Shown here: positions 2,487 through 31,567 of the stretch, in pieces
Layout of the letters: the number at the start of each line of letters is the position of its first letter
Position numbering within the stretch: position 1 is the stretch's first letter
DNA from: Dictyostelium discoideum
Taxonomy: Eukaryota
Assembly (NCBI GenBank): GCA_000004695.1
Contig: CM000151.3
Location: 5,216,001-5,280,000, forward strand
Length of the DNA: 64,000 bases
Direction: 5' to 3'
Notes under the pieces: model-generated
What the model was told of the DNA's origin: nothing
The model's database searches: none
The model's input: only the letters and a program-made list of their open reading frames with translations
Made by a program: the position numbers and the translations under genes

Positions 2487-5400
2487 TTATTTTGATTTTA
2501 TTTTTTGTTGGTGTTGTTGTTGTTGTTTTGTTGTATTCTTTTTAATAACTTTAATTTGATAAACTATATCATTATAAACTGTATCTCTATCTTTATTAAT
2601 AAAACTTGTGAAATTAAAAATTTTATAATCACTTGTTTTAATTTGAAGAGCATTGAAAACCAAAGCTACTTTAATTTTCTTAACTTCAATAATATTTAAA
2701 AGTGGTACAGATATTTTACCACCAATTGAAATACCAACTTGTTTTAAGAGATTATGAAAACCTAAATATCTACTACTAATTACCAATAGACCTAATTGAC
2801 CATTATAGGAGCAAAGATATTTTTCAATGATGAACTCATTCTCTGGAATAACATTTATACTTTCAATAGAAATATCAACACCATCTATTACCAAAGGTTT
2901 TTCAACTACACCTTTAATCTTATTTACAAATGTACGTGATTCTTTATCAAATTCCATTCTAGTTGATAAAATTGATATAATTTCATCAAGTGAATTTGAA
3001 ATTAATTGATTTAAAGTTTGTTTAGTTGTTGTTGTTGCCGATGTTGATGTTGATAATGAACCAGATGATGATGACGATGATGATGAATTCATACTATTTG
3101 ATAGTTTCTTTTGATTTTGATTATATTGATCAATTAAAGAAGTTGTATCCATTTCAGATAATGATAATAATAAACGAAGTGGTAATAATTTCTCTTCAAG
3201 TATTGGTGTTGCAACACCACCACCACCTCTATGAAATAATACCATTAATTCTCTAAGTACTGAATTTACAATTAAAATTTGATCAACATTTAAAATTACA
3301 TGATCAGAATGAAATGGTAATTTCAATTCATTTGGTCTTTGAATTAATAGATATTGTAATTCTTGAATAATTTGAATCCATAATTTTCTTAAAAATGGTT
3401 TAAATGAAGTTTCTCTAAACTTTCCATATAATTCTTCAATCTTTGTTGTTAAAAATTCTTTAATTTGTGATAATATCATTTTTTCAAATCTTCTTAAATT
3501 AATAACTGATCCATTTAATCCATTATTATTATTATTATTATTATTACCATTACTATTATTATTATTATTATTATTATTACCAATTGAATCAATTAATGAA
3601 CCAGAAGAATTTGATTGAGAATTTTGAATTGGTGTAAAAACATATGGAGGAGTTGTAGTAGAATCAATTGTTGGTGAAGTTACAGAATGATTACTATTAA
3701 TTGAAGATGACAAACCATTAGTGGTGGTTGTAGTGGTCGTTGAATCAATATTTGTACCAACACTACCAACAATTGAATTTGGTGATAAAACTATTAAATT
3801 TTCTTGAATATTTTGTTGTTCAGTAAAATGACTATTTTTTAAAACCAAAGGTTCAGAGAATAAAACTGATTGAAAACAATAGAATAAATAATTTTTAATT
3901 CTTTTACAAAGGAAATCCTCCAAATCATCAATTGATTGATTTAAATATTTATGAGTATCGTCAAGACAAAGTTTAAAACTATCTTCAATACATTGTTTTG
4001 TATATTTATCTAGATTTTGAATTTCACCTTGTTTCTTTCTTTCCTTTAGATTATTTAAAAGATTTGAATGAATTGTTGAGGCTAAAGAATCCAATTTAGC
4101 TTTTGATTGTTCGATATTATTATACATTATACATGGTTCAATGTTTAGAGTGAAAATGGGTGGTTTACCATCGATTGATTCAACTTCAGTTGCTTCTATC
4201 CAATCATAAAATTCTTGTTTTAATAAATTTACATAGTGAATGATTTGTGAGCTAATAACTTCCAATAGTTGAACAAAAGAGAAAGAATCTGGTAACCACA
4301 TTAATGAATCGAAATCTTTTAATGATTGATCACATTGTTGAAAGAATTTTTTAAAACTAAAACTATGACCTAGTGTAATGGAAGCCAAAGTTTTCTTATC
4401 ATCACTTTTAATCGATTCAATACAACAATTTGAAAGTGTTTCATTGATTTCTTTTAATAACTTGTAAACATAAGTTACAAACAATTGTTTCAATGGCATT
4501 GGTTTAAATCTTTCCATTGCAATTGATTTTGTGAAATTATGATAATCCAATACCCTTTTAACCAATGGTAAAATGTTTGGATGGTATGGTGCCCAACTAC
4601 AAAAATCCTCCATAATCGTTAGAATACAACCACCCCAAACATCAATCAAATCACAAGTTATCTTTACATCAATTGGGAAGGCAGATTCATACTTGAGAGT
4701 GTTATTAACTTCCTCTTGAATGATTTCGATCAATTCTATTAACATTAGAGAGATCTCAGATACTTGTTTGATTTTACTTGATAATTCCATTTGAAGGAAA
4801 CCCATTGCAATTATATTCTCTTCAAATTTCTTTTTTTGTTCAATTATAATGGTTGATGATAAAAGATAATTGAAATAGATTGATTGATGTTGTGGTTCAC
4901 CAGTGATATTTAAATTTAATAAATTACAAATGGAACCTAACGATTGAACTAACCCTTTCAAAGCATTTCTTGGTTTATTATTTGGGAATGATTCATAGAA
5001 TCTACCAATGGTGAATTTAATTTGTGAAAATAGTAATACAACACTTGAATGAATTGATTTTAATTCACCCTTTATGAAAATGAATGGTGTTTCATTAATA
5101 ATCTCCCAAATTCCTTCTAAAAGTTCTTGTAATTCCATTATATAATTTTTACTTTTATTTGATAATGCTGTAGTTGAAGATGCTAACGATGGTTTCATCT
5201 CTAATTTATATCTATCTGCCATTATACTTAATTGAACTACCATTGTCGTTGATTTTGATAATCCATATCTAAGTGAATATTGATTCAATAACATTCTAAA
5301 ATAACTTAATATCCAAACATCCTCTTCTTTGTCATCATTTGTTGTATCATCGAATGGGTTTATAAATTTTGGTGGAACTGATGAAGGTGTATATGATGTT

Positions 5401-5753
5401 GGTGATTTAATATTTGATTTCAATAATGATAATTTATAATTCTCTTGTTCTTCTAATATAAAATTAAATAATGTTGAATATAATGATATATGTAAAACTG
5501 AACATCTATGTTGTAAATTAATTGATGAATTTGGATTATTAATTGGTAAATTATCAACATTATTACCACCACCACCACCACCACCACTATTATATGATTT
5601 TAATATAATTTGACGTTGATCCAATTGTAATAAATATTGATTATACTCTTGAAATTGATATTGATATTCAATTGATAAATTAATTTTACCAATTTCTAAA
5701 TTATTATTTATAACACTTTTAATTGAATACCAATCTTCTTTTATAATTTCATT

Positions 5754-27217: not shown

Positions 27218-28505
27218 ATGACAATTGATTGGGACTCAATTCTTAGCTATAACACAATCAAAGTGGTTCGTATAAGAGACCGACGGCTTGGGTAATTTTT
27301 TAAATTTTAAAAGAGTTAATTCATTTTTATAAATTAAAATCTAATAAAAAAAAAAAAAATTTTAAAAAAAAAAAAAAAATAGAATTTTACATTTATGTTT
27401 TTTAATAGTAATTGTATTATATGTTGTTGTTTATTCGGCGATTATTAAAAAAGGTTATGTTACAACTGAAGAACCTGTTGGCTCAATTAGAACTTCATTA
27501 TTGGCTCCAGATGAATTAAAATCAAATCAAGCATATTGTAAAAATAATACAGAACCATATCCATATGAAAAATTAGATTGTGTTTATTATGATGAGAAAT
27601 TAGCTCTCTTTCCCATTGGTGATGATGTTGGATTTACGGCTTCCACTAGGATGAGAATTTCAGATCAAACCGTAAATTGTAGTTTAATGAATCCATCTTG
27701 TAAATTTTATACCAATACATCAATGAATGTTTATTTAGCAGATATTGAAAGTTTTACAGTTTTAATTGATCATACAATGTATGCACCATCTTCTCAAATT
27801 CAATTTAATGGTGATGATTTAAGTGGATATGTTTTAGATCAAAATGGTAATGAAATTCAATTAAATGAATCTGTAAATACAATTGGTGTTCAAGGTAAAC
27901 CTGATATTTTACAACTTGGAAAATTATTAGAATTTGCTGGTGTTGATTTAGATGGACCTTGTAAGTTTTTTTTTAAAGAAAAAAATAATAATAATAATAA
28001 AATTATTTATTTATTTATTTATTTTAATGTATTATATATAATAATAGCGTTAGTAAATTCAAGTAATTCAATTAGATATGATGGATGTGTTTTATTTGTA
28101 TTTATTGAATATTCAAATACATTTTCATATGATTTAAAAAAGATTAAATATGTTTATTCAATTAAAAAAGTTGATGATACTGCTTATGATGTACCAGAAG
28201 TTATTATTTTAAATAATGAAAATTCAAGATTATATTATAAACGTCATGCAATTAGATTAATTTTCATTCAAACTGGTGTAATTGGTTCATTCAATTTTCA
28301 ATCATTACTTTTAACATTAGTTAGTGGTCTTGGTTTATTAACTGTATCAACTTTAATTGTTGATCAATTGGCAATTAGATTTTTACCACAAAGAAAATCT
28401 TATAGTTCACTTAAATTCCAAACAACTGAAAGTTTTAGAATGAAAAAAAAAATTGTAAATGATGATGGTGAAGATAAACTTTATCATAATATTGAAGCTC
28501 TATAA
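27218..28505 (+). CDS. P2X receptor family protein (ATP-gated channel), paralog 1. Exons 27218..27291, 27383..27960 and 28048..28505.
   Basis: Exon 1 encodes MTIDWDSILSYNTIKVVRIRDRRLG, the diagnostic P2X N-terminus. The donor CTTGG|GTAATT and acceptor aaaatAG|AATTTTACATTT give GILHLCFLIVIVLYVVVYSAIIKKGYVTTEEPVGSIRTSL (TM1). The Cys-rich ectodomain follows (..CKNNTEPYPYEKLDCVYYDE..NCSLMNPSCKF..). A CCTT|GTAAGT...ataatAG|CG intron leads to TM2 and the C-tail. All phases were checked. Confidence 0.8.
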
Positions 28506-29590: not shown

Positions 29591-30209
29591 ATAAATAAAA
29601 AATTAGAATCCAAAAAACTAAAAATAAATTAAAAAAACTAAAAATAAAATTATAAGGTTTAATAAAATATATATATTATTTTTTTTTTTTTTTCTTTAAT
29701 TTTTTTTTTTTTTTAAGTAGGGTATTTTATATCTTTTTTTTTGCAAAAGAAAAAAAAAAAAAAATTGATTTTTTAATAACGTCATCAAGGCGTAATTTCA
29801 CAATTTTTTTTTATTTTGAAAATCAAAGAGAATTAAAATACCTTTTAAAAAAAAATTCTTTTTTACAAAAAATCAAGATATTTTGTAAAACTGTTTTTTT
29901 TTTTATTTTTTTTTTTTTTTTGTTAAAAAAAAGTGAAAAATTCTGAAAGTCTCTTCATCACTAAACTTATCATTGATTACTTTGACAAACAAGCAAATGT
30001 TATAAGTAATAAATAAATAAAAACTTATATATATAAATAAAATTAATAATAAAAATGTTAGATTGGGGTTTGTAATCTTTTTTTTTATTTTTTTATTTTT
30101 TTATTTTTTTTTTTTAAGTCTGTTTATTAATATAAGTTTCAAAAAAAAAAATGAATAAAGTAATTAATTTTGTTTTTTTTTTTATTATTATTATTATTTC
30201 TTAAGATTC

Positions 30210-30313
30210 TATTCTAGCCTATAACACAATCAAAGTGGTTCGAATAAGAGATAGGCGTCTTGGGTAACTTTTAAATTTTAAAAAAAGTATTAATTTTTAT
30301 AAATTAAAATCTA

Positions 30314-30359
<46 letters not shown>

Positions 30360-30532
30360 CCTTCATTTAATTTTTATGATTGCAATTATTTCATATGTTG
30401 TAATATATTCAGCAATTATTAAAAAAGGATATCTTTCAATAGAAGAACCTGTTGGTTCTATTAGGACCTCATTATGGAGTGTATGGTATCATTTATTAAA
30501 ATAATTTCAATAATTATAAAATGATGTTAATA

Positions 30533-30567
<35 letters not shown>

Positions 30568-31567
30568 AAAAGCCAAATCAATTTAATGGTAATGAATCAT
30601 ATTGTAAAAATAATGCAAAACCATATCCATATGAAAAATTAGATTGTGTTTATTATGATGACGCTTTAGCTCTCTATCCTATTGGTGATGATGTTGGCTT
30701 TACGGCGTCCACTAGGATTGAAATTTCAGATCAAAAGGCAAACTGTAGTTTAATGAATCCATCTTGTAAATTTAAAACCTTTAACTATAGTAATGTTTAT
30801 TTAGCAGATATTGAAAGTTTTACAGTTTTAATTGATCATACAATGTATGCACCATCTTCTCAAATTCAATTTAATGGTGGTGATTTAAGTGGATATGTTT
30901 TAGATCAAAATGGTAATGAAATTCAATTAAATGAATCTGTAAATGTAATTGGTGTTGAAGGTAAACCTGATGTACTTGAAATTAGTAAACTTTTAGAATT
31001 TGCTGGTGTTAATTTAGATGATCCATGTAAGTTTTTTTTTTTTTTTTTTTTTTTTTCTCAAAAATTATTAAATTTAAAAAAATAATTAATAATAATAATT
31101 ATATTATAGCATTGACAAATTCAAGTAATCCAATTAGATATGATGGATGTGTTTTATTTGTATTTATTGAATATTCAAATACATTTTCATATGATTTGAA
31201 TAAAATTAAATATGTTTATTCAATTAAATTAGTTGATGATACAATTTATAATATACCAGAAGTAGTAATATTAGATGATGTAAATTCAAGATTATATTAT
31301 AAACGTCATGCAATTAGATTAATTTTCATTCAAACTGGTGTAATTGGTTCATTCAATTTTCAATCATTACTTTTAACATTAGTTAGTGGTCTTGGTTTAT
31401 TAACTGTATCAACTTTAATTGTTGATCAATTGGCAATTAGATTTTTACCACAAAGAAAATCTTATAGTTCACTTAAATTCCAAACAACTGAAAGTTTTAA
31501 AATGAAAAAAAAAATTGTAAATGATGATGGTGAAGATAAACTTTATCATAACATTGAAGCTCTATAA
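30210..31567 (+). CDS. P2X receptor family protein, paralog 2 (tandem duplicate; 5' end and start codon unresolved). Exons ?..30263, 30357..30480, 30573..31026 and 31110..31567.
   Basis: This copy is about 80% identical to paralog 1 across exon 1 (..DSILAYNTIKVVRIRDRRLG), intron 1 and the downstream exons (GILHLIFMIAIISYVVIYSAIIKKGYLSIEEPVGSIRTSLWS | PNQFNGNESYCKNNAKPYPYEKLDCVYYDD..). It has one extra phase-0 intron (AGT|GTATGG..aaaaAG|CCAAAT). The in-frame ATG at 30151 is followed by TAA at 30202 before the conserved block. Confidence 0.65.

Follow-up and report, generated by a model that had tools for sequence, protein, structure and literature searches.

Receptors of the P2X family are characterized by a YxTxK/R motif in their cytosolic N-terminus, ahead of the first membrane segment. 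Among the five receptors of Dictyostelium discoideum, P2XC is the only one for which no ATP-evoked current has been obtained in oocytes or HEK cells and the only one unable to rescue p2xA-null cells (PMC2787382, PMC3774368). Its paralog P2XB, on the other hand, does give rise to ATP-evoked currents (PMC2787382, PMC3774368), which were reported, as data not shown, to be abolished upon co-expression of P2XC (PMC2787382). Tagged P2XC localizes to the contractile vacuole and its orientation is supported by protease protection (PMC2787382). As far as the transcript is concerned, p2xC clones obtained by RT-PCR from vegetative Ax2 cells were 100% identical to the predicted coding sequence (Ludlow et al. 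2009, PMC2787382), and a synthetic humanised p2xC cDNA was used in a later study (Baines et al. 2013, PMC3774368).

The window, i.e. the whole stretch of 64,000 nt analyzed here, comes from chromosome 2 of D. discoideum AX4 and has a G+C content of about 20%. It contains two tandem P2X-like genes on its + strand, p2xB (paralog 1) and p2xC (paralog 2), the former located 1.5 kb upstream of the latter, with products that share ~78% amino acid identity. No P2X copies beyond these two were detected in the window by tblastn, and a tRNA scan revealed no tRNA genes in it. The spliced p2xC model comprises five exons (Table 1) and encodes 368 amino acids in one uninterrupted frame with a single terminal stop. 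Its product is a full-length exact match to P2XC, "P2X receptor C" (XP_643831.1 / Q553Y0, DDB_G0275191), and the spliced p2xB product is likewise identical over its full length to AX4 P2XB (Q553Y1, DDB_G0275293). The model in the window and the entry DDB_G0275191 / Q553Y0 (P2XC_DICDI) describe the same gene with no difference; the gene, its start and its first intron are already present in public annotation, and the protein has already been studied experimentally.

Table 1. Features of the p2xB-p2xC locus, in coordinates of the window (a slash marks an exon junction)
Feature	Position	Strand	Description
p2xB	27218..28505	+	exons 27218-27291, 27383-27960, 28048-28505; exon 1 uninterrupted, DW/D intron lost
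p2xC coding exon 1	30055..30067	+	13 nt, ATGTTAGATTGGG = ATG TTA GAT TGG G
p2xC intron 1	30068..30205	+	138 nt, GT-AG, phase 1, GTTTGTAA...TTCTTAAG, donor GTTTGT, G+C 9%
Chance ATG, candidate initiator of the first-pass annotation	30151..30153	+	intronic, AX4-specific; closest relative here has ATAAATAAA
TAA blocking the frame of ATG 30151	30202..30204	+	3' end of intron 1 (cTTAAG), overlaps the acceptor AG 30204-30205
p2xC exon 2	30206..30263	+	58 nt, followed by GTAAC; taken for exon 1 in the first-pass annotation; encodes (D)SILAYNTIKVVRIRDRRLG, including the N-terminal YxTxK motif
p2xC intron 2	30264..30356	+	93 nt, GTAACT...TTTTAG
p2xC exon 3	30357..30480	+	124 nt; first hydrophobic segment
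p2xC intron 3	30481..30572	+	92 nt, GTATGG...AAAAAG; lacking in AX4 p2xB
p2xC exon 4	30573..31026	+	454 nt
p2xC intron 4	31027..31109	+	83 nt, GTAAGT...TTATAG
p2xC exon 5	31110..31567	+	458 nt, stop TAA included

We consider it highly probable (about 0.95) that paralog 2 is the intact and expressed p2xC gene, which starts at ATG 30055 with a 13-nt coding exon and from whose transcript the 138-nt intron 1 is removed, and that the features which had made its 5' end appear defective are intronic. Translation would begin at ATG 30055, which lies in an A-rich context (aataaaaATG), and coding exon 1 would supply M-L-D-W and the G of Asp5. The spliceosomal GT-AG intron of phase 1 with its GTTTGT donor would then be excised and G joined to AT, and the 30151 ATG, the stop codon TAA at 30202 and the T11 homopolymer would all belong to the intron and be untranslated in the mature mRNA. 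The donor at 30068 and the acceptor AG at 30204-30205 are in phase, and removal of the 138 nt, with G/AT joined, yields MLDWDSILAYNTIKVVRIRDRRLG. The beginning of the gene reads ATG TTA GAT TGG G/GTTTGTAATC, with a visible resemblance to the start of p2xB, ATG ACA ATT GAT TGG GAC. The N-terminal peptide obtained from this model is (M)LDWDSILAYNTIK; in the N-terminus of spliced P2XC, MLDWDSILAYNT, the DWD motif of the family is restored, while the N-terminus of P2XB is MTIDWDSILSYNT. The transcribed exon 1 of p2xC additionally comprises a 5' UTR.

The first-pass annotation had stated that p2xC possesses no usable initiator, which is wrong: it had overlooked another ATG, the next one upstream, which lies at 30055, 96 nt from the decoy at 30151. 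The observations from which it had started can all be found in the sequence. The ATG at 30151-30153 does share its frame with the DSILAYNTIKVVRIRDRRLG block, which begins with the codon GAT at 30205, and this frame reads MNKVINFVFFFIIIIIS until it is halted by the TAA at 30202-30204. GTAATT...CTTAAG (30160-30205) comprises 46 nt, and its excision leaves MNK joined to ILF and a stop, with the frame off by one base; the T-run described near 30172-30183 is a T11 at 30173-30183; and exon 1 of paralog 1 begins with ATGACAATTGATTGGGAC at 27218. Because they are situated inside intron 1, the ATG, the TAA and the 46-nt GT..AG pair are without significance. The 138-nt intron is 91% A+T, at least one ATG occurs in 72% of its shuffles (mean 1.14, observed 1), and each frame of this stretch contains two to four stop codons; the flagged ATG, TAA and T11 run are no more than chance in intronic sequence. 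The suggestion that the gene might use an unannotated upstream exon was right in that an in-frame upstream exon exists (13 nt, 30055-30067), and wrong in that this exon is already annotated (XP_643831.1 / Q553Y0).

All combinations of ATG, GT and AG in the 1.2 kb upstream that lead into the conserved frame with no intervening stop were enumerated. Eight formal solutions were obtained, and only 30055/30068/30205 gives both the DWD motif and an intron of ordinary size. The ATG at 30151 is found in none of the eight, as no GT/AG combination tried puts it in frame. With the same start and donor, the use of the acceptor at 30217 (150-nt intron) would entail the loss of DSIL, and with the donor GTAATC at 30072 (17-nt exon), no nearby acceptor is in phase. 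Six solutions, with far-upstream ATGs (29190, 29277, 29514), are formally possible, but they require introns of 673-991 nt and give unrelated N-termini (e.g. MKTLLKYSILAY). The 59 introns in our models of the family are 55-298 nt long. GTTTGT deviates from GTAAGT, the commonest donor in this set, and is present at 11 of the 59 introns; a literature search for a Dictyostelium splice-site reference returned nothing specific.

The p2xB-p2xC loci were compared in D. citrinum, D. dimigraforme, D. firmibasis and two assemblies of D. cf. discoideum. Four of these five assemblies (the exception is L005 of D. cf. discoideum) make up, together with AX4, the five p2xC taxa, and the same 13-nt exon 1 is present in the p2xC orthologs of D. 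cf. discoideum, D. citrinum, D. dimigraforme and D. firmibasis. The models of these orthologs are gene predictions, possibly guided by the AX4 annotation, and the argument from conservation is based on raw DNA instead. The ATG, the GATTGGG and the donor GTTTGTA are unchanged in 5/5 taxa and form an island amid unalignable A+T-rich DNA, with codon 2 alone varying (TTA/TTT/ATA/GTA/GTT, i.e. L/F/I/V/V). The sequences of intron 1 cannot be aligned, and their lengths, in the same order with AX4 first, are 138/115/84/74/97 nt (0/1/0/2/1 modulo 3). An invariant island followed by a freely diverging stretch is what one would expect to see for a coding exon, its splice sites and an intron. None of the four other taxa has the ATG at 30151, and the sequence of the closest relative is ATAAATAAAT, with T5 as compared to T11 in AX4.

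Use of the homologous junction has been documented at the RNA level in Tieghemostelium lacteum, where two contigs of ~1.3 kb (L011 and L012; assembled from runs ERR3252995 and ERR3252994) contain the whole P2X ORF uninterrupted. One of them reads ...caacaacaATGGGTTTATTTAATTTAGATTGGG/ATGATCTT... and is collinear with the genome save for a 92-nt intron that has been removed; a genome-collinear 5' leader of 68 nt is followed by ATGGGTTTATTTAATTTAGATTGGG/ATGATC, with the intron precisely out. Contigs spliced exactly at this site demonstrate in vivo use of the homologous junction in this relative. In D. discoideum itself, the clones of Ludlow et al. 2009 confirm the expression of p2xC and its introns 2-4. 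Since the forward primer in that work, GCCGCCACC-ATGTTAGATTGGG/ATTCTATTCTAG, spans junction 1 (PMC2787382), the 5' end of the clones was imposed by the primer and they do not independently show junction 1 in AX4. A full-text literature search for DDB_G0275191 gave no match, and no paper with primer-independent support for junction 1 was found; among the cluster members, all of which come from genome annotations, there was no RNA-derived contig with the full p2xC product. We infer that the 30067^30206 junction is used in AX4 mRNA.

In addition to p2xC, a phase-1 intron immediately after GATTGGG has been found in p2xA (coding exon 1 of 22 nt, donor GTTTGT), in p2xD (exon 1 of 10 nt) and in P2X genes of D. 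purpureum (16 nt), Polysphondylium violaceum (16 nt) and T. lacteum (25 nt). In these five genes, as in p2xC, exon 1 ends in GATTGGG and AT resumes to complete the Asp codon, the sole difference being the number of codons before DW. The position and phase of intron 1 are common to the five p2xC orthologs and the five other family genes, and its lengths, 73-138 nt, are free of any modulo-3 constraint. In p2xB, the GATTGGG-adjacent intron is lacking in all taxa examined. Its presence in p2xA, p2xD and other dictyostelids and its absence from p2xB show that the split start is ancestral, and the uninterrupted exon 1 of p2xB represents a derived state that arose by intron loss. The first-pass annotation had taken this uninterrupted exon as the reference, i.e. 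with the polarity reversed.

Apart from this intron, and the intron after SLW in AX4, both of which p2xB lacks as compared to p2xC, the tandem genes are built alike, with introns after LG and after DxPS in both, and their products share the N-terminal DWDSIL(A/S)YNTIKVVRIRDRRLG; P2XB has one extra residue ahead of DWD (MTIDWD vs MLDWD in P2XC). The SLW/S intron of p2xB is also lost in AX4 and in one D. cf. discoideum assembly, where the neighboring exons are fused into one of 578 nt, and kept in D. citrinum, D. dimigraforme and D. firmibasis (exons of 124 and 454 nt). The p2xB loci compared were 27218-27291 and 27383-27960 of the window, L001 2213-3592, L002 2196-3586, L004 2221-3601 and L005 2307-3603. 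Judging from these gene structures, one member of the tandem pair, p2xB, has undergone a stepwise, lineage-specific loss of introns, the 5'-most intron having been the first to go. In the D. cf. discoideum assembly L005, the positional p2xC (4001-5491; GCA_054859235.1, P0015) starts with MAIDWD and has an uninterrupted 74-nt exon 1 and a product of 369 aa; this p2xB-like start suggests that p2xB has converted the 5' end of the gene or that intron 1 has been lost independently. In the other D. cf. discoideum assembly, L003 (1941-3498; GCA_054859205.1, P0009), the p2xB ortholog is annotated with 430 aa vs 369 aa, which is probably a difference of gene prediction that concerns the 5' end or an intron.

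Over their last ~90 codons, at the 3' ends, AX4 p2xB and p2xC (28230-28505 vs 31290-31567) share 99-100% of their DNA sequence, and the same region is 93-100% identical between the paralogs within each species (97-100% in three of four species), as compared to 92-95% between the D. discoideum and D. citrinum orthologs. The dS between AX4 p2xB and p2xC is 0.22, lower than the 0.35 for p2xC orthologs. The higher identity of paralogs than of orthologs in the 3' part, together with their lower dS, indicates recurrent and ongoing gene conversion confined to this part of the pair.

P2XC exhibits a match to the Pfam P2X_receptor family (PF00864) with 70.5 bits and E = 1.7e-19, against a cut-off of 27 (P0001); P2XB is also well above this cut-off, and PF00864 was found in all homologs retrieved. 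The N-terminal family motif is represented in spliced P2XC by Y10-N-T-I-K14, encoded in exon 2 and kept in all homologs. P2X receptors have two hydrophobic membrane segments, one on either side of a large loop, and a YxxxK motif after the second; in P2XC, hydrophobic stretches ILHLIFMIAIISYVVIYSAII and LLLTLVSGLGLLTVSTLIVDQLAI and a YSSLK were read from the sequence by eye. P2XC can be placed in the P2X family by homology, rather than by demonstrated ATP-gated channel activity.

Several other explanations of the unusual 5' end have to be weighed against an intact p2xC with a split start. According to one of them, put forward in the first-pass annotation, p2xC would be a recent 5'-crippled pseudogene that has lost its initiator while its body has not decayed. 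An ATG at 30151 that runs into a TAA would agree with this, as would the silence of P2XC in oocytes and HEK cells and its failure to rescue p2xA-null cells (PMC2787382, PMC3774368), but a complete in-frame model is available and equals the annotation, the split start is the ancestral structure of the family, and p2xC cDNA has been cloned from vegetative cells (PMC2787382). Moreover, the gene structure is kept in five taxa and an intact ORF is found in every taxon compared (at least five), and the pairwise Nei-Gojobori dN/dS of p2xC orthologs is 0.08-0.15 over dS of 0.13-0.46, and therefore p2xC is no pseudogene; the chance that it is one nonetheless is practically nil. We give equally negligible credit to an assembly error of one nucleotide in the T11 homopolymer (30173-30183) that would mask a mini-intron of 45 or 47 nt after ATG 30151. 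Homopolymers are error-prone and the 46-nt GT..AG stretch is just one base out of phase; however, the full ORF is obtained without assuming any error, the run lies within the intron, and the same gene model holds for the closest relative, which has T5 in place of T11; both ATG 30151 and GTAATT are missing from all four other taxa. An intron of 46 nt would also be shorter than the minimum of 55 nt among the 59 family-model introns, and the resulting protein, MNK-(D)SILAY, would be without the DW motif, which is present in almost all dictyostelid homologs retrieved and in all five D. discoideum paralogs.

There is a very slim chance that the 13-nt exon is an artefact of prediction and that p2xC uses another 5' exon or start, either a far-upstream ATG with an intron of 673-991 nt or the internal Met31. 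The six far-upstream solutions within 1.2 kb and the primer dependence of the AX4 cDNA at junction 1 speak in its favor, but the N-termini of these solutions are unrelated to those of the family, their introns are untypically long for it and no conserved island was seen there. A start at Met31 would fall within the first hydrophobic segment and eliminate the YNTIK motif. The 13-nt exon and its donor, on the other hand, are invariant in five taxa, and the homologous junction has been confirmed in T. lacteum RNA.

For p2xC, the start at ATG 30055 with the 138-nt intron 1 means little beyond bookkeeping of gene models. It illustrates how reading by eye is defeated when the first coding exon is very short and lies in DNA of ~90% A+T, with the real ATG 96 nt upstream of the decoy. 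It is very unlikely, if a little short of negligible, that more is involved, i.e. that the weak but conserved GTTTGT donor ties the output of p2xC to the splicing of intron 1, or else that AX4 has another 5' end and the constructs of "non-functional P2XC" were built with a wrong N-terminus. If the output did depend on splicing, transcripts that retain intron 1 would yield, from ATG 30055, just MLDWGL followed by a stop. Because junction 1 is verified by the comparative data, the lack of P2XC currents is unlikely to result from a mis-annotated N-terminus. The gene (30055-31567) exhibits strong purifying selection, although published work found neither ATP-gated current nor rescue activity for P2XC. 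Selection of this kind on a subunit that is silent alone would fit a role of P2XC in regulation or in heteromers.
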